Source: a phage. Taken from it: a DNA stretch of 64,000 nucleotides. The stretch lies in the sequence record OZ335961.1; one strand, written 5' to 3'. Below are positions 2,376 to 62,486 of this stretch, piece after piece. Position numbers and translations under genes: made by a program. Every line of letters starts with the position of its first letter. Within the stretch, counting starts at the first letter, position 1. The notes beneath the pieces were generated by a model. It had not been told where the DNA came from. It saw only the letters and a list, made by a program, of their open reading frames with translations, and searched no databases.

Positions 2376-2552
2376 TTATGCTTTCTGCTTACCAAAACGA
2401 GAAGCATCATCTCGAAGAACCGCACGTGCTCGGCGCATGATCTTCTCAACAGTTTGATTGATACGAGAGTTCGACCCACGCTTGTAACCAGCGCGTTTAG
2501 AATCACCAACTTTCTTTTCAACTGCTTTCTTTGCTTTAGCTTGTTTTGCCAT
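2376..2552 (-). CDS. small lysine/arginine-rich basic protein (~58 aa)
   Basis: ORF track trimmed to MAKQAKAKKAVEKK...; followed by a hairpin terminator. Confidence 0.45.
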   Translation of the reverse strand: MAKQAKAKKAVEKKVGDSKRAGYKRGSNSRINQTVEKIMRRARAVLRDDASRFGKQKA

Positions 2553-2949
2553 TATAAATTCTCTTTTAAATGAAAATGCAGGACTTATTGGCATTGCCTG
2601 CGAAAGCCCTCAAGGGGTACTTAGGTTTTGAATATTTACCGACAGGATAACCATAAACCTCGTCAACATACCTTATAGCTCTTATCTGTTGCACACCGTT
2701 AGCTTAAAGGTTCCGGGTTCGATTTCTCGAGGATAAGATATATACTGATGGATATATAGGCCTTGAGGCGTACTCCCGATTGGCCATCACCTCGGGGTAG
2801 CATGCACTTGCCGCTATAAGAATAACATTCAAGAGGTACACCGTAAAACTGCCGGGGTCTTAAAACTATAATGATTCGCAAATCATTAGTCAGACAGTTC
2901 GACGGCTCCTCGATTTTAGCTCACACTAAGGCAGTGAATCTCCAATAAA

Positions 2950-22296: not shown

Positions 22297-25200
22297 ATGG
22301 CCGAGATTAAAAGAAAGTTCAGAGCAGAAGATGGTCTGGACGCAGGTGGCGATAAAATAATCAACGTAGCTTTAGCTGATCGTACCGTAGGAACTGACGG
22401 TGTTAACGTTGATTACTTAATTCAAGAAAACACAGTTCAACAATATGATCCAACTCGTGGATATTTAAAAGATTTTGTAATCATTTATAATAATCGTTTT
22501 TGGGCAGCAACGGATAATATTCCAAAACCTGCTGGAAGTTTTAATAGAATTCGTTGGAAAGCATTACGTACTGATGCCGTATATACAACCGTATCATCTG
22601 GACCGTATCAATTAAAATCCGGAGAAGCAATTTCAGTAGATACATCAGTTGGTAATGACATTGAGTTTACTTTACCACCTTCTCCGCTCGATGGAGAAAC
22701 AGTAATAATTCAAGATATCGGTGGAAAACCTGGTATAAATCAGGTTAAAATAAGTTCTTCAAATCAGAGCATTGTTAATTTTAGAGGTGAACAAGTACGT
22801 TCAGTTTTAATGACTCATCCAAAGTCACAGATGATATTCATTTTTAATAATCGTTTGTGGCAAATGTATGTTGCTGATTATAGCAGAGAAGCTGCAATTG
22901 TTACTCCATCGACTGCGTATCAAGCACAATCTAATGATTTTATCGTGCGTAGATTTACTTCCGCAGCGCCGATTAATATTAAACTTCCGAAATTTGCTAA
23001 TCATGGCGATATTATTAATTTCGTTGATTTAGATAAATTAAATCCTCTTTATCATACAATTGTCACGACATATGATGAAACAACTTCAGTACAAGAAGTT
23101 GGAACTCATTCCATTGAAGGCCGTACATCGATTGACGGTTTCTTGATGTTTGATGATAATGAAAAATTATGGAGATTGTTTGACGGGGATAGTAAAGCGC
23201 GTTTACGTATCATAACGACTAATTCAAACATTCGTCCAAATGAAGAAGTTATGGTATTTGGTGCGAATAACGGAACAACCCAAACAATTGAGCTTCAGCT
23301 TCCAACTAATATTTCTGTTGGTGATACTGTTAAAATTTCCATGAATTACATGAGAAAAGGCCAAACAGTTAAAATCAAAGCTGCCGGTGAAGATAAAATT
23401 GCTTCTTCAGTTCAATTGTTGCAATTCCCAAAGCGTTCAGAGTATCCGCCTGAAGCTGAATGGGTGACTGTTCAAGAATTAGTTTTTAATGGTGAAACTA
23501 ATTATGTTCCAGTTTTACAGCTTGCTTATATTGAAGATTCTGACGGAAAATACTGGGTAGTACAACAAAACGTTCCAACAGTTGAAAGAGTTGATTCTTT
23601 AAATAATTCTACTAGAGCAAGATTAGGCGTAATTGCTTTAGCTACACAAGCCCAAGCTAACGTCGATTTAGAAAATTCTCCACAAAAAGAATTAGCAATT
23701 ACTCCAGAAACATTAGCTAACCGTACTGCTACAGAAACTCGTAGAGGTATCGCAAGAATAGCAACTACTGCTCAAGTAAATCAGAACACTACATTCTCTT
23801 TTGCTGATGACCTTATCATCACTCCTAAAAAGCTGAATGAAAGAACTGCTACAGAAACTCGCAGAGGTGTTGCTGAAATTGCTACGCAGCAGGAAACTAA
23901 TACAGGTACTGATGATACTACAATCATCACTCCTAAAAAGCTTCAAGCTCGTCAAGGTTCTGAAACATTATCGGGTATTGTAACTTTTGTATCTACCGCA
24001 GGAGCTACTCCAGCCTCTAGTCGTGAATTAAATGGTACAAATGTTTATAATAAAAATACTAATAATTTAGTTGTTTCGCCTAAAGCTTTGGATCAGTATA
24101 AAGCTACTCCAACACAACAAGGCGCAGTAATTTTAGCAGTTGAAAGTGAAGTAATTGCTGGACAGAGTCAAGAAGGATGGGCAAATGCGGTTGTAACGCC
24201 AGAAACGTTACATAAAAAAACATCAACTGATGGAAGAATTGGTTTAATTGAAATTGCTACGCAAAGCGAAGTTAATACAGGAACTGATTATACTCGCGCA
24301 GTCACTCCTAAAACTTTAAATGACCGTAGAGCAACTGAAAGTTTAAGTGGTATAGCTGAAATTGCTACACAAGTTGAATTCGACGCAGGCGTCGACGATA
24401 CTCGTATCTCTACACCATTAAAAATTAAAACTAGATTTGATAGTACTGATCGTACTTCTGTTGTTGCTCTGTCTGGATTAGTTGAATCAGGAACTCTCTG
24501 GGACCATTATACCCTTAATATTCTTGAAGCAAATGAGACACAACGTGGTACACTTCGTGTGGCTACACAAGTTGAAGCTGCTGCAGGAACATTAGATAAT
24601 GTTTTGATAACTCCTAAAAAGCTTTTAGGTACTAAATCTACTGAAGCGCAAGAAGGCGTTATTAAAGTTGCAACTCAAGTTGAAACTGTTACTGGAACGT
24701 CAGCAAATACTGCTGTATCTCCAAAAAATTTAAAATGGATTGTGCAAAGTGAACCTACTTGGGCAGCAACTACTTTGGTAAGAGGTTTTGTTAAAACTTC
24801 ATCTGGTTCAATTACATTCGTTGGTAATGATACAGTTGGTTCAACACAGTCATTAGACTTGTACGAGAAAAATAGCTATGCAGTATCGCCATATGAATTA
24901 AACCGTGTATTAGCAAATTATTTGCCGTTAAAAGCAAAAGCTGTAGATAGTAATTTATTGGATGGTCTAGATTCATCTCAGTTCATTCGTAGGGATATTG
25001 CGCAGACGGTTAATGGTTCACTAACCTTAACACAACAAACGAATCTGAGTGCCCCTCTTGTATCGTCTAGTACTGCTACGTTTGGTGGATCAGTTTCGGC
25101 AAATAGTACATTAACTATTTCTAATACTGGAACGGCAACTCGTCTGATTTTTGAGAAAGGACCTCAAACTGGGACGAACCCAGCTCAAACGATGACAGTC

Positions 25201-31841: not shown

Positions 31842-32498
31842 ATGGCAGCACCTAGAATATCATTTTCGCCCTCTGGTATTCTGTTTGGTGTTCTGGATCG
31901 CTTGTTCAAAGATAACGCTACCGGGAAGGTTCTTGCTTCCCGAGTAGCTGTCGTAATTCTTTTATTTATGATGGCGATTGTTTGGTATAGGGGAGATAGT
32001 TTCTTTGAGTACTATAAGCAATCAAAGTATGAAACATACAGTGAAATTATTGAAAAGGAAAGAAACGCACGCTTTGAATCTGTCGCCCTGGAACAACTCC
32101 AGATAGTTCATATATCATCTGAGGCAGACTTTAGTGTGGTGTATTCTTTCCGCCCTAAAAACTTAAACTATTTTGTTGATATTATAGCATACGAAGGAAA
32201 ACTACCTTCAACAATAAGTGAAAAATCACTTGGAGGATATCCTGTTGATAAAACTATGGATGAATATGCAGTTCATTTAAATGGACGTCATTATTATTCC
32301 AACTCAAAATTTGCTTTTTTACCAACCAAAAAGCCTACTCCCGAAATAAATTACATGTACAGTTGTCCATATTTTAATTTGGATAACATCTATGCTGGAA
32401 CAATAACCATGTACTGGTATAGAAATGATCATATAAGTAATGACCGCCTTGAATCAATATGTGCTCAGGCGGCCAGAATATTAGGAAGGGCTAAATAA
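31842..32498 (+). CDS. t: holin t
   Basis: 218 aa, same length as T4 holin T; single N-proximal TM segment with large C-terminal domain; follows gene 38. Confidence 0.8.
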   Translation: MAAPRISFSPSGILFGVLDRLFKDNATGKVLASRVAVVILLFMMAIVWYRGDSFFEYYKQSKYETYSEIIEKERNARFESVALEQLQIVHISSEADFSVVYSFRPKNLNYFVDIIAYEGKLPSTISEKSLGGYPVDKTMDEYAVHLNGRHYYSNSKFAFLPTKKPTPEINYMYSCPYFNLDNIYAGTITMYWYRNDHISNDRLESICAQAARILGRAK

Positions 32499-45806: not shown

Positions 45807-46178
45807 TCACTCAAATTTAATGGCTTGAAGGAGACTAATAATTCTCAAGCGACTTCTTTCATCTTTAACTGTAAAAGAAAGAGGGTCACCAGATTTCATA
45901 GTGATAGTACATTCAAAATCAAAATCTTCAGGAACTTCTTCGAAGAAGTCAAATTCTTCATCATAAATTAGAACATTACTCTGAAAACTGTGAAGAATTT
46001 TTCCATCATTTCCAGATGCTGTACTAATCATTGTAACATTATGGCCTTTCATATCTTCAACGATAAATTCACTTGTAGATATTACGACATTAATAGAACC
46101 ATTCCTATAAATAGAAGAAAGTAGATATTTCTTTTCTTCACCTTCGCGAACACGATATTTCTTACCGATTTTAAACAT
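45807..46178 (-). CDS. hypothetical protein (~123 aa)
   Basis: ORF track; track start appears to be GTG, trimmed to ATG. Confidence 0.45.
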   Translation of the reverse strand: MFKIGKKYRVREGEEKKYLLSSIYRNGSINVVISTSEFIVEDMKGHNVTMISTASGNDGKILHSFQSNVLIYDEEFDFFEEVPEDFDFECTITMKSGDPLSFTVKDERSRLRIISLLQAIKFE

Positions 46179-46180
46179 AA

Positions 46181-46357
46181 TCACCCTTTAAGTAAGTCGT
46201 AAAAACCACCATTCACATGCTTAGGAGCAGAAGGCCGACGAGTAGACAAACGATGACATTTAGGGCAAACATCATTTTCTCGTTCAGAAATCTTTTTAAT
46301 TTTTTCATATTTATGGCCGCAATCTTCGGATTGGCATTTATAATCATACATTGGCAT
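46181..46357 (-). CDS. FmdB-like zinc-ribbon small protein (~57 aa)
   Basis: Hand-translated MPMYDYKCQSEDCGHKYEK...CPKCH; two CxxC pairs; below ORF-track cutoff. Confidence 0.4.
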   Translation of the reverse strand: MPMYDYKCQSEDCGHKYEKIKKISERENDVCPKCHRLSTRRPSAPKHVNGGFYDLLKG

Positions 46358-56227: not shown

Positions 56228-56271
56228 ACTATTTATAATAAATTCTCACAGCTTTTAAGCTGTCGTTTATA

Positions 56272-56791: not shown

Positions 56792-57442
56792 TTATTTTTC
56801 CTTTCTTATGAAGTTTTCTATCATATGTCTATAGCAGATATTAGGATAACCTGCCTTGACAGCTATTTTATTAAATTTTGTGCGCTTAGGTCTATTATTA
56901 TAAACCCATAATTCATAAAGCGCATCATAACTATTCCATATTTCTCCTCGCCTAGGATTTGGTAAACCATATCGAGGCGAATTTTTACCGCTAAATCTTC
57001 CTTTTCGGGCTTTACTCATATTAGTCTTGGCTTCATCGGATATAATTTTACCTTTATGAGCTAGACGCATTTTGGCTTTAGTTTCTTCTGGAGTCTTTTT
57101 GCCTTTAATCCATGACGGCTTACCATATCTAGGATTATTTTCACCCGAGAAAAGAACAGAGTTTTGGATTTTAAGGGTTTCTATTAATCTACTTGTTAAT
57201 TTAACACCTTTATTATATCGCATTAAATTTACAGCATAATGCAATCCTCTCACATCTGGATATATTTTAGTTAATAATCTATGAGCTATAAAATGCTCAC
57301 GCGCAGTTAACTCAACAAGATTGTTTTTGCCATCTGCTCCTCCCATACATCTAGGAATTATATGATGGCGTTCTTTATATCCGCCAAGATGCCGGCATTT
57401 AGCTTTTGTAATTAAAGCCGAGTAAATTTTTTGGTAATTCAC
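56792..57442 (-). CDS. HNH homing endonuclease (Mob-type), paralogue of 12125..12856
   Basis: 216 aa; N-terminus nearly identical to the nrdA/nrdB endonuclease (MNYQKIY..HHIIPRCMGG..NLVELTAREHFIAH); C-terminal NUMOD-like repeats (NPRYGKP, NSPRYGLP). Confidence 0.75.
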   Translation of the reverse strand: MNYQKIYSALITKAKCRHLGGYKERHHIIPRCMGGADGKNNLVELTAREHFIAHRLLTKIYPDVRGLHYAVNLMRYNKGVKLTSRLIETLKIQNSVLFSGENNPRYGKPSWIKGKKTPEETKAKMRLAHKGKIISDEAKTNMSKARKGRFSGKNSPRYGLPNPRRGEIWNSYDALYELWVYNNRPKRTKFNKIAVKAGYPNICYRHMIENFIRKEK

Positions 57443-57512
57443 ATATATCCTTTCAATTCATGGATTAGTAGATTAATTATACAATAAATATATAAAGCAA
57501 TAAGGAGGATAT

Positions 57513-57713
57513 ATGGTACAAAAATTAATGGCACTTGTAGATGCCATAAAAGGTAATAAAAGACGTATAGCTTTTACTATTTCTGCTATGATAGGAATTT
57601 TACTTTGGAATTTTGTTTTATCGCCAGTTGCTATTGCTCATGGTGTTAGTATTCCAGTAATTACTCTCGATACATTCGTAGATTTAGCATTTGCTTTAGT
57701 TGGGTTAATTTAA
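57513..57713 (+). CDS. small hydrophobic protein (66 aa), opposite strand to neighbours
   Basis: ORF track; canonical SD AAGGAGG 7 nt before ATG; two predicted hydrophobic segments; 3' end converges on the primase stop. Confidence 0.45.
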   Translation: MVQKLMALVDAIKGNKRRIAFTISAMIGILLWNFVLSPVAIAHGVSIPVITLDTFVDLAFALVGLI

Positions 57714-58738
57714 ATCTTAGCATATTTAGATAGCCGCATTTTGGCCATCAACCCTTGGGCAATATTATTTTTCATATATTCCATAATTTGTTCAGGGGTT
57801 GCACCTTCCTTTCTAATCATATCATTAACATCTTTTGATTTCCAGGGAGATTTGTCCCAAAACATAACCCTTTCTCCTGCATCAACCAATTTAGTCATTC
57901 GTTTAATAGTATCAGGGTGACGAGGTTCATTATCTAAAACCCATACACGTCTATCTTTAAATGGAACAATTTCTAGGTCTAATTGACCACCCGTAATAGC
58001 TATACCATTTTCAATAAAAAGTGAATCTATAGGTCCTTCTAGAACATATACATCACCATCTTTGACTCGTTCAACTCCATAGATTTTTGTTGCCTCAGGA
58101 TAAGCTTTGATGGTGATATATTTTTGAGGAGCATCTTTCTTTAATGCACGTCCTTGAAAAGACTCAGCTTTTCCGTTAGCATTATAAATTGGAATAACAA
58201 GACGAGGCTCAGATATTTCCTTTTTATATGTTCCTGGCGCTATACTATTAACTAATTTAGGCCATTCGGTTGTAAACCAAAGATATTTCCATTTATCCTT
58301 TGGAATACAACGAGCTTTTACATATTTTATAATTGGATGGTCTTCCGCCAGTTTATCTAATCTAATGCATGACGGAAGAGATTTAATTATTTTCTTCTCA
58401 GGCTGCTTAGGAAGTTCTTTAGGTTTTTCTACTGGACGACTTTTACCTTTTTCTTTTCTTATTTCAAAGATATACTCACGATATAAATCAGGTTCAAACT
58501 CCTTTAAATATATTCCGATTGGTGCATGATAGTTACAGTTATAACAATGAATATTTCCTTCATTATTATCACCATAATACCATCCACGGGCTTTATTTTG
58601 GTCGGTTTTTGAATCTCCACAAACAGGGCATCTAAACCGTAATTTAAAAGTTGAACTATTATTTACTTGTGCGAATTTAGGTAAATGAGCCAATGCACGG
58701 TATGCAAACTCATTATCAATCCAAGGTATTGATGACAT
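57710..58738 (-). CDS. 61: DNA primase gp61
   Basis: 342 aa as T4 gp61; N-terminal CPVCGD...CYNCNYH zinc ribbon; TOPRIM core. Confidence 0.9.
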   Translation of the reverse strand: MSSIPWIDNEFAYRALAHLPKFAQVNNSSTFKLRFRCPVCGDSKTDQNKARGWYYGDNNEGNIHCYNCNYHAPIGIYLKEFEPDLYREYIFEIRKEKGKSRPVEKPKELPKQPEKKIIKSLPSCIRLDKLAEDHPIIKYVKARCIPKDKWKYLWFTTEWPKLVNSIAPGTYKKEISEPRLVIPIYNANGKAESFQGRALKKDAPQKYITIKAYPEATKIYGVERVKDGDVYVLEGPIDSLFIENGIAITGGQLDLEIVPFKDRRVWVLDNEPRHPDTIKRMTKLVDAGERVMFWDKSPWKSKDVNDMIRKEGATPEQIMEYMKNNIAQGLMAKMRLSKYAKI

Positions 58739-58743
58739 TTTTA

Positions 58744-58905
58744 CTCTTCTTTTTCTTTAGATTCCTCTTTTTTCTTTTTAGGAATCTGTTCAGGACCTTT
58801 ATTTACTACAGCGCCTGACGTTGTTCCAGTGGAGATATTTTCAGGATTACCACCTGAGTCTCCAGCTACCATATCTTCTTTAATAAATTCTTTATATGTT
58901 TTCAT
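58744..58905 (-). CDS. small low-complexity protein (~54 aa)
   Basis: Hand-translated MKTYKEFIKEDMVAGDSGGNPENISTGT...KKKKEESKEKEE; start abuts upstream stop; below track cutoff. Confidence 0.3.
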
Positions 58906-58906
58906 A

Positions 58907-59533
58907 TTAACCTCTATTCATAAAAGCATTAAAAATTTGGTCATCAATAGAAACATTTACTTTAGACTGTTTTTCTGATGGTAATTCATATCCACATATT
59001 ACAATTTTGTGATCAATATCAAAATACACAGAAGCAATATGATTAATGATGTTTTCAGTAAAGTCTAAATCAACATCAATATCTTTTTGACCACAGCCCA
59101 AAGGATAAATAATGCGAGTAATTCGATTATCTTTAACAAAGATTCCACCGACATACTCTGTTCTGCGTTTAAAATCTACACGCCGACGAAATGAAAAATA
59201 TTCAGGCTCTTTATGAGCTCTGCTCATAGGACACAACGAGTAACTAGAATAAGAGATGTCAAATCCTACGCCTTCAATATGAGCCAAAGTATCATGATTA
59301 AACCAATTATAATCGTACGCCAAATCCATTAGATTATAATATGTAAAAGGCACTGGATTAACATCATTAGTCACAAGCACGTAATTAGCAATTGCTATAA
59401 TTTCATTGTTTTTAACGAATACAAACCGTGATTGATGGGAATGACCTGGACCCGCGTTTTCACGATTAATGATATAACACTGGGCACCTTTATATTTGTA
59501 TGTATCTTTGCACTTGTGCATTTGATAGAGCAT
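58907..59533 (-). CDS. hypothetical protein (208 aa)
   Basis: ORF track; 61.x position. Confidence 0.5.
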   Translation of the reverse strand: MLYQMHKCKDTYKYKGAQCYIINRENAGPGHSHQSRFVFVKNNEIIAIANYVLVTNDVNPVPFTYYNLMDLAYDYNWFNHDTLAHIEGVGFDISYSSYSLCPMSRAHKEPEYFSFRRRVDFKRRTEYVGGIFVKDNRITRIIYPLGCGQKDIDVDLDFTENIINHIASVYFDIDHKIVICGYELPSEKQSKVNVSIDDQIFNAFMNRG

Positions 59534-59826
59534 TATTCACCTACCACTTCAGCGATGATATTTTTATTATTAAAGTTTTTATCACAATACAGAACATAAT
59601 TATACTGCATTACACCACCAGATTTAAGCTGTTTTTGCACTTCAGCTTTCATTTCAGGACGATCACGCTCAACGATATTCATAATATCCGCTTCAATTTG
59701 AATTTCAACTTCAGTCTGATCTGCAGTCATAGACCATTCGCACAAATCTTTGTCATAACCCGCCATAGCAGGCTGAGCAGCGCAAGAAGATAAAGCAAAA
59801 ATTGCAGCAAAGATAAATTTTTTCAT
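59533..59826 (-). CDS. sp: spackle periplasmic protein (superinfection exclusion / lysozyme inhibitor)
   Basis: 97 aa with N-terminal signal peptide MKKFIFAAIFALSSCAAQPAMA; size and position as T4 Sp. Confidence 0.7.
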   Translation of the reverse strand: MKKFIFAAIFALSSCAAQPAMAGYDKDLCEWSMTADQTEVEIQIEADIMNIVERDRPEMKAEVQKQLKSGGVMQYNYVLYCDKNFNNKNIIAEVVGE

Positions 59827-59854
59827 GATAATCTCCTCAGTAGTTTATGTTTAT

Positions 59855-59884
59855 ATAGTATCTCAATTTCCAACAAAAGTAAAC
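59855..59884 (-). promoter_or_regulatory. T4-type early promoter upstream of sp
   Basis: GTTTAC -35, TACTAT -10. Confidence 0.5.
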
Positions 59885-60138
59885 TATTTTATTTCCTCAA
59901 GTTCGTTAATCAATAAAAGTTCTCTGACGCTAAAAACAAAGAAAAATGTGTTCCCATCAACCAGAGCATGACCGCTAATAGAACACCCTCTGCGGAATTT
60001 AGAAACTTCACAATCTAGAACTGTAAAGGGTTTTAATCCTATGACTTTAGCTATGCGTCTATTCAGTTCACAACCACTTGCGAATTTTTCCAAATCTTCT
60101 TCTGATTTAAACTGATATTCTCTATTAACTAGCATCAT
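59884..60138 (-). CDS. hypothetical protein (84 aa)
   Basis: ORF track; early promoter upstream at ~60170-60199. Confidence 0.45.
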   Translation of the reverse strand: MMLVNREYQFKSEEDLEKFASGCELNRRIAKVIGLKPFTVLDCEVSKFRRGCSISGHALVDGNTFFFVFSVRELLLINELEEIK

Positions 60139-60169
60139 TTTCTTTTCTCCGCGATTAGCTGATAGAATT

Positions 60170-60199
60170 ACTATAACACAACTCTATCAGCTTGTAAAC
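60170..60199 (-). promoter_or_regulatory. T4-type early promoter
   Basis: GTTTAC -35, TATAGT -10; precedes ORF 59884..60138. Confidence 0.45.
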
Positions 60200-60201
60200 T
60201 A

Positions 60202-60486
60202 CTATTTTACTAGCATCAATAACTGTTTCTCTAACTTAATAATTTTACGAAAGTATCTTTTGCATTGACGAATCTGCCGCTTCGTAGGGCGCACAGCAAA
60301 CTTAATAAATTCCACTCGACCAAATGGAGGACTTTCTTCTGCTGGAATATCTAACACCAATTCCCACGTATCTGCAACAAGTGCTTTGAATTGAGTATTT
60401 TTCCTGACATTATACGGAGTAGGTTTAAATAAAACAATATGCATATTACCCTCGGCAATCCACTTCACATACTTTCTTGTCATCAA
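60202..60486 (-). CDS. hypothetical basic protein (94 aa)
   Basis: ORF track; Lys/Arg-rich C-terminal half. Confidence 0.45.
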   Translation of the reverse strand: MMTRKYVKWIAEGNMHIVLFKPTPYNVRKNTQFKALVADTWELVLDIPAEESPPFGRVEFIKFAVRPTKRQIRQCKRYFRKIIKLEKQLLMLVK

Positions 60487-60628
60487 TGAAAGCTTTAACT
60501 AATGCTTTATTAACTTCAGCATATTGAGTAGTAGCCCATTGAACGTCATCTTTCATCATTGTGATTTCTTTAGTAAACATGCTTTCATTCTTAAACCACC
60601 CCATAAAAACTACCTTTACCAATTCCAT
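60446..60628 (-). CDS. dmd: Dmd (inhibitor of RnlA/LsoA toxin RNases)
   Basis: 60 aa MELVKVVFMGWFKNESMF...; size and position immediately upstream of gene 41 as T4 dmd. Confidence 0.7.
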   Translation of the reverse strand: MELVKVVFMGWFKNESMFTKEITMMKDDVQWATTQYAEVNKALVKAFIDDKKVCEVDCRG

Positions 60629-60657
60629 AACAATCTCCTCATTTAACCAACAAGACT

Positions 60658-60687
60658 ACTATACCATAGTCTTGTCGGCTTGTAAAC
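60658..60687 (-). promoter_or_regulatory. T4-type early promoter upstream of dmd
   Basis: GTTTAC -35, TATAGT -10; overlaps the gene 41 stop region. Confidence 0.45.
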
Positions 60688-62114
60688 TAAAATTTTAATT
60701 CATTTGCCAAAGCATCTAACTGAGCTCGAGCGGATTCGTTTCTTTGATAGCGGTTCTGTTCAGCCTGAATCTGCTGTGAACCTGCTACTTCGTTCACTTC
60801 GGTTGGAGTAGAATCTTGCTCAATTTCTACCCATTTTTGATTTCCTTTTTGAACACCCATCAAAAACTTATTCCATTTATTCTTATCACCATATCGTGAT
60901 TTGATTTGCTTAATGAGTTGTTGTTCAGCGGCTGCTAACTCCTCGGTTTCAATGACCGCAAGCATAAAATCGGCTGTTGCTGGAAGACCGGCAGATTCTG
61001 CAATATCGCTCATGTTAACATCAGAAGAATCCCAAGCTTGCTTACCAACCTGTGCTGCAGTCCAAAGAACAGTTTCGGTTTCAACAGCCAGAGCACGCAA
61101 TTCTTCTGCGATGGCTTTAACAGTTGTGTAACTATTTTCTGAATAAACTCTGATGCGACAAGATTTACAAATACCCAGATAGTCAACAATAATGATTGTT
61201 GGAACAAAATTCTTCTTGAGCTTTAATTCGTTTAAAAGCGATCGAAATGTATTAGCGTCTGCTCCACCAGTAGGATATTGCTTAACGATTAAACGACCGA
61301 GAGTAGATTTCTCACGCCATTTTTCCATTTTTCCTTTATACTCAGCGTAAGAAATATGCCCATCATCAATGTCATCAAGAGAAACATCAAGCATGTTAGC
61401 GTCAATACGCTTAGCACAAACTTCTTCTGCCATTTCCATGGAAATGTAAAGAACATTATGTCCGAGCTGCAAATAATCTGCTGCCAATGAACACAGACCT
61501 AATGACTTACCGACGTTAACACCAGCCATTAAAACGTTCAGTGTTCCAGTTTCAGCTCCACCTTTAGTAATTTTATTTAGAATTTTGAGTCTAAATGGAA
61601 CCTTACGAGCTTTATTCATATAAGATAGCCAACGTGCTTCGTAGTCATCCATCCAATCATGACCAACGTAACTATCAAATGAAATTGATAATGCTTGGCG
61701 CATGATGTCAGGAATAGCACCTACATCTGGCATTTTCTTATTTCGTTTTTCCGGAGGAAGCTCAGCATTAGTTTGAATTTCAATTATTTTAGACGTAGCA
61801 TTAAACATCGCCCTTTGCTGAACATATTTTTCTGTTTCTTTTACTAACCAGCTATGGTCTTCTGGAGAATCGGCTAGTTTCGAAATAAGTGTTTTTACAC
61901 CAGAATATTCTGTTTCAGTAAATGAACTATTTTCTAATGCAACATTTAACGCATTAATAGATGGAACGCTATGGTATTCATTAACATGAGATTTAATTAA
62001 TTTGAATGTATTTTTAGCTGGACCACTTTCAAAATATTCTGAATCCATATATGGCCAAACTTTTGAAAAATAAGCTTGATCAAATATGAGATGAGAAAGA
62101 ATAATTTCTACCAC
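60687..62114 (-). CDS. 41: replicative DNA helicase gp41 (DnaB family)
   Basis: 475 aa as T4 gp41; Walker A GVNVGKS. Confidence 0.9.
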   Translation of the reverse strand: MVEIILSHLIFDQAYFSKVWPYMDSEYFESGPAKNTFKLIKSHVNEYHSVPSINALNVALENSSFTETEYSGVKTLISKLADSPEDHSWLVKETEKYVQQRAMFNATSKIIEIQTNAELPPEKRNKKMPDVGAIPDIMRQALSISFDSYVGHDWMDDYEARWLSYMNKARKVPFRLKILNKITKGGAETGTLNVLMAGVNVGKSLGLCSLAADYLQLGHNVLYISMEMAEEVCAKRIDANMLDVSLDDIDDGHISYAEYKGKMEKWREKSTLGRLIVKQYPTGGADANTFRSLLNELKLKKNFVPTIIIVDYLGICKSCRIRVYSENSYTTVKAIAEELRALAVETETVLWTAAQVGKQAWDSSDVNMSDIAESAGLPATADFMLAVIETEELAAAEQQLIKQIKSRYGDKNKWNKFLMGVQKGNQKWVEIEQDSTPTEVNEVAGSQQIQAEQNRYQRNESARAQLDALANELKF

Positions 62115-62123
62115 ACTTACTCC

Positions 62124-62486
62124 TTAAAAGAATTTAAATTTTTTCTTTGACCTTTTATTAAATGCATCTTGTAGTTGCATTGTAATACATTTTTCTACAT
62201 GAGGAGCTAACTCAGCTTTTCTTTCTTGGTCAAGAACAGCAAAGTCCATTACGACTTTTCCATCAACCCAATCTAATTTTGTCACATACACAATGTGTGT
62301 AGAACCATCTTCTAGTTTAATGACAATCTCCTGGATAACATTTTCCATGGCAGATTTAATTATCTTAAGAGATTCACTAAAAAGACGTTCTTTTCTTTCT
62401 TCTTCCCCCTCCGAAGAGGGGGATTCATCGATAATTTCTAGATCTAAATCTAAATCATCTTTATTCATTAAATTCTTCCATATCAC
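62124..62486 (-). CDS. 40: hypothetical protein (120 aa), gene 40 position
   Basis: ORF track; located between 41 and uvsX as T4 gene 40. Confidence 0.5.
   Translation of the reverse strand: MIWKNLMNKDDLDLDLEIIDESPSSEGEEERKERLFSESLKIIKSAMENVIQEIVIKLEDGSTHIVYVTKLDWVDGKVVMDFAVLDQERKAELAPHVEKCITMQLQDAFNKRSKKKFKFF

Follow-up and report, generated by a model that had tools for sequence, protein, structure and literature searches.

The immunity and exclusion proteins of phage T4 are products of early, minus-strand genes, and both Imm and Sp are small T-even envelope proteins. Gene t encodes the T4 holin, and t-null phages do not lyse. The T4 antiholin RI is also small, with a cleavable signal peptide; its N-terminal hydrophobic segment is followed by a Pro-x-small-x-small motif and, in the periplasm, by a folded domain of roughly 70 residues through which it binds holin T, and its gene lies on the early strand. 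Outside the T-even phages, class II holins and pinholins (lambdoid S21) are hydrophobic proteins of about 65-70 amino acids (aa) that are expressed late. The T4 gene soc is a late gene that lies amid early genes, on the same strand as these neighbours, and has its own late promoter box. Finally, a family of small proteins without assigned function, catalogued as PHROG 2024 and including RB69ORF029w and RB32ORF030w, is annotated next to gene 61 in the genomes of hundreds of T-even phages.

A small open reading frame (ORF) found in the window (the whole 64,000-nt stretch of phage sequence record OZ335961.1 that was analysed) is an ordinary member of this last family, from which nothing distinguishes it (Table 1). 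Its 66-aa product, by translation MVQKLMALVDAIKGNKRRIAFTISAMIGILLWNFVLSPVAIAHGVSIPVITLDTFVDLAFALVGLI, matches the PHROG 2024 HMM with E = 1.3e-29, its residues 2-66 covering the whole profile of 65 positions, and tblastn found the ORF in 693 phage records, near full length in 686 and always beside the 3' end of gene 61. The opposing outcome named in the initial annotation, a conserved and known T-even gene of established function, applies as far as conservation and cataloguing go (RB69ORF029w, RB32ORF030w, PHROG 2024) and does not apply to function. Besides RB69ORF029w and RB32ORF030w, the homologues include an ORF of T4 itself (NC_000866 17738..17938). Three subfamily sets (T4/RB69; Dhakavirus and Klebsiella phages; Jiaodavirus, Moon and MY742) are mutually only 17-22% identical, and all of them lead to PHROG 2024 with E = 1e-15 to 1e-29 (1e-15 to 1e-26 for subfamilies B and C), giving this family a spread over at least seven Tevenvirinae genera, with a length of 63-66 aa and a constant position and orientation beside gene 61.

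Table 1. Location of the small ORF, its signals and its neighbours in the window.
Feature	Coordinates	Strand	Remarks
Small membrane-protein ORF	57513..57713	+	66 aa, ATG start, TAA stop at 57711-57713
Shine-Dalgarno AAGGAGG	57502..57508	+	4 nt (ATAT) before the ATG of the ORF
T4 late-promoter-like box AATAAATA	57483..57490	+	A(-13) variant of TATAAATA
Predicted transmembrane helix	57567..57638 (codons 19-42)	+	Hydrophobicity, AlphaFold2 helix 16-42, invariant columns
C-terminal short amphipathic/hydrophobic helix LDTFVDLAFALV	57666..57701 (codons 52-63)	+	Hydrophobicity, AlphaFold2
Terminator-like hairpin and U-rich tail	57518..57547 (stem-loop 57547..57528)	-	Within ORF codons 2-12
MotA-type middle promoter	57476..57500	-	TTGCTTTA at 57500..57493, 11-nt spacer, TATAAT at 57481..57476
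Primase gene 61	57710..58738	-	Convergent partner; stop overlaps the ORF stop by 4 nt
HNH/NUMOD3 homing endonuclease gene	56792..57442	-	Variable left neighbour, outside the unit
soc late box TATAAATA	56237..56230	- (descending coordinates)	Motif scan of the window
sp	59533..59826	-	In the window

Outside this family, the searches found little. A profile search with the type A alignment against 1.84 billion representative proteins gave only seven hits, all of them family fragments except a marginal match to a 1255-aa protein, which was taken as noise; types B and C were missed by this search and were found through the primase 3' ends in other genera. A related-locus search with the single protein returned only five IMG/VR loci. 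Pfam gave no match above threshold (DUF6124 was sub-threshold, at 13.7 bits against a cut-off of 27), and the PADLOC defence and anti-defence models gave none for representatives of the three subfamilies at E <= 1. From BFVD, Foldseek recovered, apart from members of the family, only two phage proteins of 63 aa (E = 0.1-0.3), and from the PDB nothing meaningful; homology to characterised proteins was thus absent from Pfam, PADLOC, PDB and BFVD. A known RNA element in the region was considered as well and rejected, Rfam having no match on 57300-57900. No study of the ORF, RB69ORF029w or RB32ORF030w was found in the searchable literature.

The ORF is encoded on the strand of the tail-fibre genes 34-38, with all the surrounding early genes on the opposite one. 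The statement that it is the only plus-strand ORF in about 30 kb stands if credible genes are meant, for about 31 kb, and fails as a count of ORFs: further plus-strand ORFs of at least 90 aa occur between 32.5 and 64 kb, all of them within minus-strand genes and with the appearance of shadow ORFs. Within the first 27.5 kb of the annotated close relative WL-3, no CDS but the homologous gene lies on the plus strand, which, together with the shadow character of the other frames, leaves the present ORF as the block's single credible gene of that strand. The AAGGAGG noted before the start codon is present, with a measured spacer of 4 nt (ATAT) in place of the 7 nt given initially, and the stop codon converges on that of gene 61, as had been noticed, with an overlap of 4 nt. 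An (A)GGAG(G) element occupies the same position in all 12 copies of the ORF that were compared, the start codon is conserved among them, and the predicted 5' leader is unstructured, which would leave the start accessible. Its length alone is not significant in the AT-rich DNA of the window; what exceeds chance is the open frame of 63-66 codons with codon-periodic substitution throughout 693 records and several genera. Taken with the hydrophobicity of the product and the ribosome-binding site, this conservation bears out the initial description: the gene is real, lies on the switched strand and encodes a small hydrophobic protein.

The copies compared show a genuine, vertically inherited Tevenvirinae gene under purifying selection on its protein. 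The dN/dS values are 0.09-0.26 against T4, JK45 (an RB69-type copy) and VR26a, spanning Tequatrovirus, this RB69-type copy and Gaprivervirus. Differences from JK45 at the three codon positions number 31/13/42, and 11/4/39 and 17/6/44 within type B pairs, the second position being the least variable. Synonymous sites between lineages are saturated (dS > 1), yet the frame of 63-66 codons is open in every lineage examined. Five columns are invariant across the subfamilies (W32, N33, P38, G44 and P48), and A40 is nearly so. VR26 has two tandem paralogs, and Karamvirus PG7 lacks the gene. The copies of T4_ev240 and ECCR664 carry a frameshift in the A-run at codons 15-17, which may be either a sequencing error or a sign of dispensability in culture. 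As a whole, the locus is best explained as a genuine Tevenvirinae gene encoding an inner-membrane protein of about 7 kDa, a reading to which a probability of roughly 70% is given.

What accompanies the ORF constantly is the gene 61 3' end, whereas the HNH gene and dam on its other side are later insertions. Convergence with gene 61 was observed in Tequatrovirus, Mosigvirus, Gaprivervirus, Dhakavirus, Moonvirus and Kanagawavirus and in the unclassified Biddle and MY742; the 4-nt stop overlap recurs in T4, RB69, JK45, VR26, LHE83, Biddle, Moon and MY742, and the ORFs of PEi26 and Jiaodavirus KP01 adjoin the primase end, in KP01 with an 18-nt gap and no overlap. On the left side, the HNH/NUMOD3 gene of the window occupies the place that dam has in T4, gene 56 directly adjoins the ORF with nothing between in RB69, JK45, VR26 and T4_ev240, and other genes are found in Moon and MY742. 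Upstream of the ORF, the HNH-free T4_ev240 has an identical sequence, indicating that the endonuclease gene was inserted beside a pre-existing ORF.

The early and middle transcripts of T4 all run counterclockwise, which is the polarity opposite to that of the ORF (PMC2988020); because only late T4 transcripts run on the ORF strand, it is probably a late gene. Upstream of it lies a AATAAATA box, the A(-13) variant, which nine of the 50 T4 late promoters listed in PMC2988020 have, and transcription would start about 6-7 nt downstream of this box, near 57496-57497. Hence, the locus combines a box of the TATAAATA type with a polarity compatible only with late transcription. Of 12 copies examined, 10 have an (N)ATAAATA box whose end lies 16-22 nt ahead of the ATG. 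It is a perfect TATAAATA in Klebsiella phage Biddle and Enterobacter phage MY742, AATAAATA in RB69, JK45 and LHE83 as in the window, and CATAAATA in P896, the same as in VR26. Counting against a late reading are the rarer deviations at position -13, with G in the T4 copy, whose box at NC_000866 17709-17716 reads GATAAATA, and C in VR26 and KP01. Moon has only a near match to the late box, and the second VR26 paralog, which directly follows the first gene, has no box. In the window, WATAAATA is depleted (12 sites against 21.7 +/- 4.9 expected), and other copies of it precede the tail-fibre ORFs starting at 22297 and 27353, ORF 31842 and soc. A plus-strand TATAAATA at 46106 was considered as a second such case and rejected, having no credible ORF downstream.

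It is therefore very probable, judging from sequence signals, that the ORF is a late gene, whose own AATAAATA box would direct gp55-modified RNA polymerase to transcribe it clockwise and whose unstructured AAGGAGG leader would allow efficient translation. A parallel is soc, whose box is TATAAATA where that of the ORF is AATAAATA; both boxes lie 20-30 nt before the start codon and within the early/middle region, but soc is codirectional with its early neighbours, whereas the ORF runs opposite to its own and head-on with gene 61. The searchable literature yielded no T4 Ribo-seq data, no mapping of transcription start sites and no strand-resolved 5' ends, and the T4 multi-omics paper contains no analysis of antisense transcription or unannotated ORFs.

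The minus strand carries signals of its own in the same region. The hairpin within the first codons of the ORF (-8.2 kcal/mol, z = -2.5) is probably the 3' end of the gene 61 mRNA, which would thus end inside the 5' end of the ORF; a terminator is annotated at the matching place in the fPS-2 record, and no such hairpin is evident by eye in JK45 (RB69-type) or VR26. Back-to-back with the plus-strand late box and Shine-Dalgarno lies a MotA-type promoter, predicted to drive the HNH gene and gene 56. It matches a feature of the fPS-2 record labelled "predicted middle promoter", and it shares homology with the sequence preceding T4 gene 56, in which record X01416 places P(M) 16.53. On the plus strand, no intrinsic terminator was found for about 4.5 kb after the ORF, so that late transcription is expected to run on, in antisense, into genes 61-41.

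These neighbours and signals allow other explanations of the locus. The minus-strand hairpin and middle promoter, the lack of an annotation in the T4 reference records and the frequency of shadow ORFs in an AT-rich genome would all suit a chance open frame in the gene 61 3' UTR and gene 56 promoter region, but such a frame would not stay open for 63-66 codons in all lineages examined at dS > 1, vary least at the second codon position, keep its Shine-Dalgarno and start codon or be duplicated in tandem in VR26, and on this purifying selection and these conserved start signals the idea is rejected as barely credible. Hardly more can be said for the suggestion of the initial annotation that the ORF is cargo of the HNH cassette next to it, or serves that cassette in immunity or exclusion. 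The two genes physically adjoin each other in the window and small membrane proteins are frequent among phage accessory genes, but the HNH-containing arrangement occurs in only 30 of the 569 records matching a 1.1-kb query, against 693 records with the ORF, which is present without the endonuclease in T4, RB69, JK45, VR26, LHE83, Biddle and KP01; the identical upstream sequence of T4_ev240 also speaks against it. With a left neighbour that varies between dam, the HNH gene, nothing and others, the ORF is not inherited together with the endonuclease, and this distribution rules out its being cargo. As for immunity or exclusion, no evidence for such a role was obtained: imm (in WL-3) and sp (in the window, 2 kb away) are early genes on the minus strand, whereas the ORF is on the late strand with a late-type box, and no similarity to Imm or Sp was seen, without a direct comparison. 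Improbable, but less so, is that the selected function is a late antisense RNA against the primase, sp, dmd and helicase genes, the ORF being secondary; early mRNAs would then be silenced or processed, or the transcription of early genes would suffer collisions. The convergence with gene 61 kept in every genus examined and the missing plus-strand terminator agree with this, as does the transcription of both T4 strands at several sites and different times (PMC2988020). However, an antisense RNA needs neither a protein under purifying selection, with third-position bias and residues invariant at 17-22% identity, nor a conserved strong Shine-Dalgarno, and the synteny is trivially explained by the overlapping stop codons, which leave no intergenic room for insertions. 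An antisense role can exist alongside the function of the protein, not in its place.

The encoded protein has a GRAVY of 1.28, and its best 19-residue segment scores about +0.4 kcal/mol on the summed Hessa scale. The two hydrophobic segments initially reported are there as a description but not as two transmembrane (TM) helices, since only residues 19-41 score as autonomous; the C-terminal 17-21 residues, with two Asp inside, score +4 to +6.5 on the same scale, and in the type B paralogs this segment is barely hydrophobic. AlphaFold2, with a 16-sequence alignment, gave helices at residues 2-12, 16-42 and 52-63 with a mean pLDDT of 80 (85-89 in helix 16-42). The predicted TM helix ends in a conserved W32-N33 ... 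P38-x-A40-x-A42 motif, the latter part of which belongs to a conserved turn, P38-x-A40-x-small-(H/Q/N/Y)-G44-x-x-(I/L/V/T)-P48. By the positive-inside rule, K13, K16, R17 and R18 before the TM helix place the N-terminus inside, and the C-terminal helix is predicted on the periplasmic side. The likely arrangement is thus an N-in insertion with an amphipathic helix (2-12), a basic stretch (K13-R18), the TM helix (19-42), a turn at the periplasmic face and an acidic amphipathic helix (52-63). In virion proteomics of the close relative fD1, the homolog g032 was not detected, which is nearly uninformative because the protein has only one usable tryptic peptide (LMALVDAIK).

An anchored protein is not the only product that this sequence could yield. 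Residues 1-42 may instead be a long Sec signal, cut by signal peptidase I after A40-I41-A42 to release a 24-residue periplasmic peptide, HGVSIPVITLDTFVDLAFALVGLI, a conserved amphipathic peptide that would act on the envelope. The N-region is positive (K13, K16, R17, R18), the Pro at -5 is invariant as a helix breaker, the Ala at -3 is nearly so (Leu in RB69 and JK45), and the residue at -1 is small (A, T or S) in every subfamily (P38-V-A40-I-A42|H43 in the window), giving the putative motifs PVAIA|HG, PIALA|HG, PIAAT|HG, PLAST|HG, PFALA|YG and PVAAS|NG, a site judged solely by the -3/-1 rule. The segment past it is conserved (G44, P48, D/E53), and the signal peptide of RI, with its similar FVLSP...A c-region, also favours cleavage. 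Nevertheless, a hydrophobic core of about 18 residues (about 7-15 in a cleavable signal) after an N-region of about 18 is longer than in typical cleaved signals and resembles a signal anchor, the invariant W32-N33 in the core is unexpected for a disposable signal peptide, and the AlphaFold2 helix continues through residue 42, so that release of the peptide is considered unlikely. Much less likely still is a holin or pinholin. The small size, the hydrophobicity and the probable late expression are those of class II holins, and automatic labels read "Holin" in OE5505 and "putative holin" in KP1079, but the product has only one convincing TM helix, with no robust second one, and ends in ...DLAFALVGLI, with no K/R/E and hence without a hydrophilic, charged tail at that end; Pfam gives no holin match, and the genes beside the ORF are those of the primase and the HNH endonuclease in place of a lysis cassette. 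T4 already uses holin T, and with gene t as the holin gene and no lysis in t-null phages there is no room for a redundant one; in the window, ORF 31842..32498 is taken to be holin t because it comes after the tail-fibre block. For want of the charged tail and of the lysis-cassette and holin-family features, the holin identity is rejected.

For the membrane protein that is preferred here, a function is proposed only tentatively. So small a protein can do little but bind another membrane component, and its size, hydrophobicity, timing and conservation pattern suggest, as a guess of low confidence, a small TM modulator that would act on the envelope during late infection. Contacts would be made by the conserved W32-N33 and the Pro/Gly turn, and the most plausible targets would be the machinery of lysis or lysis inhibition, or an inner-membrane protein of the host. 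RI is a T4 analogue by description; sequence homology to characterised families was not detected with Pfam or the profile search. Both proteins are small, with an N-terminal hydrophobic segment followed by Pro-x-small-x-small and a C-terminus predicted to be periplasmic, and both are candidates for action at the envelope; in contrast to RI, the ORF product has only about 24 residues past the membrane, and its gene is on the late strand.

T4 is among the best-annotated viruses, yet this conserved gene is absent from its reference records (NC_000866 and AF158101), and it is also missing from the annotations of JS98, VR7 and PEi26. Because of this absence, knock-down screens, proteomics databases and expression atlases have probably missed it, and with a single usable tryptic peptide standard proteomics would miss the product even if it were in the database. 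The result is thus a corrective one, in which the feature is real, belongs to a catalogued family and is excluded as homing-endonuclease cargo. It is possible, though doubtful, that the overlooked late gene brings both a new component of late envelope control, as the 66-aa product or the 24-residue peptide, and antisense transcription into the primase-helicase operon; such control might concern, for example, lysis timing, lysis inhibition or protection from a membrane-acting host defence. With the gene recognised, the T-even repertoire gains one late protein that is targeted to the membrane.

The window originates from a T-even phage (Tequatrovirus), with Escherichia phage WL-3 and Yersinia phage fPS-2 as nearest relatives around the ORF (98.5% identity over 1.1 kb), and its right half is an unbroken minus-strand block of early/middle genes. 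The ORF beside primase gene 61 is present as described in the initial annotation, with the AAGGAGG motif and the stop converging on that of the primase; 4 nt and not 7 nt separate this motif from the ATG. Its standing as the only plus-strand ORF of the region holds for annotated genes, the homolog gp030 being the sole plus-strand CDS within the first 27.5 kb of WL-3, and fails for open frames in general, as other plus-strand ORFs of at least 90 aa exist in the block. All of these lie inside minus-strand genes, and the one that was translated resembles a shadow frame. The earlier observation is confirmed with these small corrections.

Features of the ORF region and its surroundings (window coordinates, except for the T4 homolog)
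Feature	Position	Strand	Remark
Late tail-fibre genes	22.3-32.5 kb	+	
Early/middle gene block	~32.5-64 kb	-	includes rIIA, gene 39, dda, modA/B, soc, gene 56, primase 61, sp, dmd, helicase 41, uvsX
HNH/NUMOD3 homing endonuclease (PHROG 655)	56792..57442	-	place held by dam in T4
MotA-type middle promoter, TTGCTTTA-N11-TATAAT	57500..57476	-	just beyond hairpin
Late-type box, AATAAATA	57483-57490	+	ends 22 nt before ATG
Shine-Dalgarno, AAGGAGG	57502-57508	+	4-nt spacer to ATG
ORF	57513..57713	+	ATG start, 66 aa, TAA stop 57711-57713
Terminator-like hairpin and U-rich tail	hairpin 57547..57528, element 57518..57547	-	inside ORF codons 2-12
Primase gene 61	57710..58738	-	stop overlapped 4 nt by ORF TAA
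T4 homolog, 66 codons	NC_000866 17738..17938 (T4 locus L001 3739..3939)	+	89% identical to window ORF

Comparison of its homologs shows that the ORF is a real gene. The window protein was matched by tblastn in 693 of 50,697 phage records (686 near full length), and the primase gene adjoins the match in every row among the matches listed. Compared with the copies of T4, JK45 (RB69-type) and VR26 (Gaprivervirus), the window copy has dN/dS values of 0.09-0.26, with synonymous sites saturated, and codon-position differences of 31/13/42. Further homologs, which tblastn with the window protein did not pick up, were located in other genera by inspection of the primase 3' end and correspond to types B and C, the window, T4 and RB69 copies being type A. 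Type B occurs in Dhakavirus (LHE83, JS98), in Klebsiella phages such as Biddle and Marfa, and as the second tandem copy in VR26, and type C in Jiaodavirus KP01, Moonvirus Moon, Kanagawavirus PEi26 and Enterobacter phage MY742. Both types share no more than about 17-22% identity with the window protein and match PHROG 2024 ("unknown function") with E-values of 1e-15 to 1e-26, the window protein itself matching at E = 1.3e-29. Type B pairs have codon-position differences of 11/4/39 and 17/6/44. Across types A and B, W32, N33, P38, G44 and P48 are invariant and A40 nearly so, and the type C copies retain W-N and the P..A..G motif. An Rfam scan of the ORF region gave no match.

VR26 has tandem paralogs between gene 56 and gene 61 (2495..2692 and 2701..2901 of its locus L005), type A followed 8 nt on by type B, with a late-type box on the first only, which suggests a two-gene late operon. 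P896 has kept the first copy, and of the second a remnant that corresponds to its C-terminal part. The loss of a single base in the A-run of codons 15-17, in the basic cluster, frameshifts the ORF in T4_ev240 (L002 2480..2500) and in ECCR664 (L006 2455..2475), and represents either homopolymer sequencing errors or a sign of dispensability in culture. Enterobacter phage PG7 (Karamvirus; L018 1653..1937) is without the small ORF and has a MazG-like pyrophosphohydrolase gene after the primase gene on the same strand; its relative MY742 combines the MazG-like gene with the small convergent ORF. Together, the frameshifted copies and the absence from PG7 suggest that the ORF is dispensable under some conditions.

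The T4 copy shares the AAGGAGG motif, likewise overlaps gene 61 by 4 nt, sits in a 310-bp "gap" between dam and gene 61 and is unannotated in NC_000866, AF158101 and the 1984 record X01416, as are the homologs in JS98, VR7 and PEi26. Named entries exist as RB69ORF029w in RB69 and RB32ORF030w in RB14/RB51.

The left neighbour of the ORF is an HNH/NUMOD3 endonuclease gene in this window and 29 other records, dam in T4, dam and HNH in ELT1, gene 56 directly in RB69, JK45, VR26 and T4_ev240, and a MazG-like gene in Moon and MY742. In the window, the stop of the HNH gene abuts the start of gene 56, and no dam homolog was found anywhere in the 64 kb. The sequence upstream of the ORF is identical in the window and in the HNH-free T4_ev240, indicating that the HNH gene is an insertion next to an ORF that was already present. 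The suggestion that the ORF is endonuclease cargo is rejected on these grounds and on the variable neighbour, and its interpretation as an immunity gene is not supported.

The ORF is probably a late gene, judging from its strand and its upstream sequence. In T4, early and middle transcripts all have the polarity opposite to that of the ORF, and late promoters have an 8-bp TATAAATA box at about -10, which is perfect in 32 of 50 listed sites and has A at -13 in 9 of the 50 (PMC2988020). In 10 of the 12 ORF copies examined, the ATG is preceded by an (N)ATAAATA box whose end lies 16-22 nt upstream of it. The box reads AATAAATA in the window, RB69, JK45 and LHE83, GATAAATA in T4, CATAAATA in VR26, P896 and KP01, and the perfect TATAAATA in Biddle and MY742, with a near match only (ATTAAATA) in Moon and none for the second VR26 paralog. 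Its surroundings are otherwise poorly conserved. The distance of the box is constant to the ORF and not to the minus-strand middle promoter, as it lies within the spacer of that promoter in the window and upstream of the MotA box in RB69 and JK45; in T4, no MotA box was found near the GATAAATA box. WATAAATA is under-represented in the window (12 sites vs 21.7 +/- 4.9 in shuffles, 100/100 of which had at least 12), and several of the 12 sites are just upstream of ORFs read as late, including two tail-fibre ORFs (starts at 22297 and 27353), soc, and the ORF at 31842, which we take to be holin t. The 5' leader of the ORF is predicted to be unstructured. No direct expression evidence for the ORF was found in the literature searched.

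On the opposite strand, the HNH gene and gene 56 are under the control of the putative middle promoter. Its counterpart by homology is the sequence preceding gene 56 in T4, for which X01416 lists P(M) 16.53. The window promoter interdigitates within 35 bp with the late box and Shine-Dalgarno sequence, in a back-to-back middle/late promoter pair. The hairpin (-8.2 kcal/mol, z = -2.5), at the same place as an annotated terminator in fPS-2, is likely the end of the gene 61 mRNA, and this stretch would then encode protein on the plus strand and terminate transcription on the minus strand. By eye, no such hairpin is apparent in JK45 (RB69-type) or VR26. No intrinsic terminator was predicted on the plus strand in 57713..62200, ~4.5 kb past the ORF, so a late transcript would run antisense to genes 61, 61.1, 61.2, sp, 61.4, dmd and 41. 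Such antisense transcription may affect regulation, but it cannot account for the selection on the protein sequence. Elsewhere in the block, a perfect TATAAATA at 46106..46113 (+), inside a minus-strand early gene (45807..46184) and with no credible plus-strand ORF downstream, could act as a late promoter in antisense direction or could have arisen by chance.

The window protein is highly hydrophobic (GRAVY 1.28). Two hydrophobic segments had been proposed, and residues 19-41 are the only stretch scoring as an autonomous transmembrane helix; the segment at the C-terminus contains two Asp and reaches +4 to +6.5 kcal/mol in a simple Hessa sum. AlphaFold2 with a 16-sequence alignment (mean pLDDT 80) gave helices at 2-12, 16-42 and 52-63 and a loop at 43-51, the same topology as an earlier run with 6 sequences (pLDDT 73). 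The basic cluster K13-R18 ahead of the hydrophobic helix predicts a cytoplasmic N-terminus, which would place the last ~24 residues in the periplasm. Conservation is highest at the periplasmic helix end and in the turn after it, W-N-x4-P-x-A-x-(A/S/T)-(H/Q/N/Y)-G-x-x-(I/L/V/T)-P. This motif also fits the -3/-1 rule for signal peptidase I, with Pro at -5, and a secreted 24-residue peptide freed by such a cut is a live alternative; however, the hydrophobic core is 18 residues long and contains the invariant W-N, both of which argue against cleavage.

Sequence and structure searches found no homology of the window protein to characterised proteins. A few family entries carry automatic "holin" labels, a function rejected here for a protein without a charged C-terminal tail or lysis-cassette context. 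The small size would allow hardly more than binding to another membrane component. Because of the probable late timing, the role tentatively favoured, with a probability of about 0.2-0.25, is to modulate an envelope process late in infection, for example lysis timing, lysis inhibition or a target in the host inner membrane. In the relative fD1, the homolog went undetected by virion proteomics, which says little because the protein gives only one usable tryptic peptide. The ORF is a member of a catalogued, uncharacterised Tevenvirinae gene family, and is of note mainly as a gene missing from the T4 reference annotation and as the one gene of the early region that lies on the late strand.
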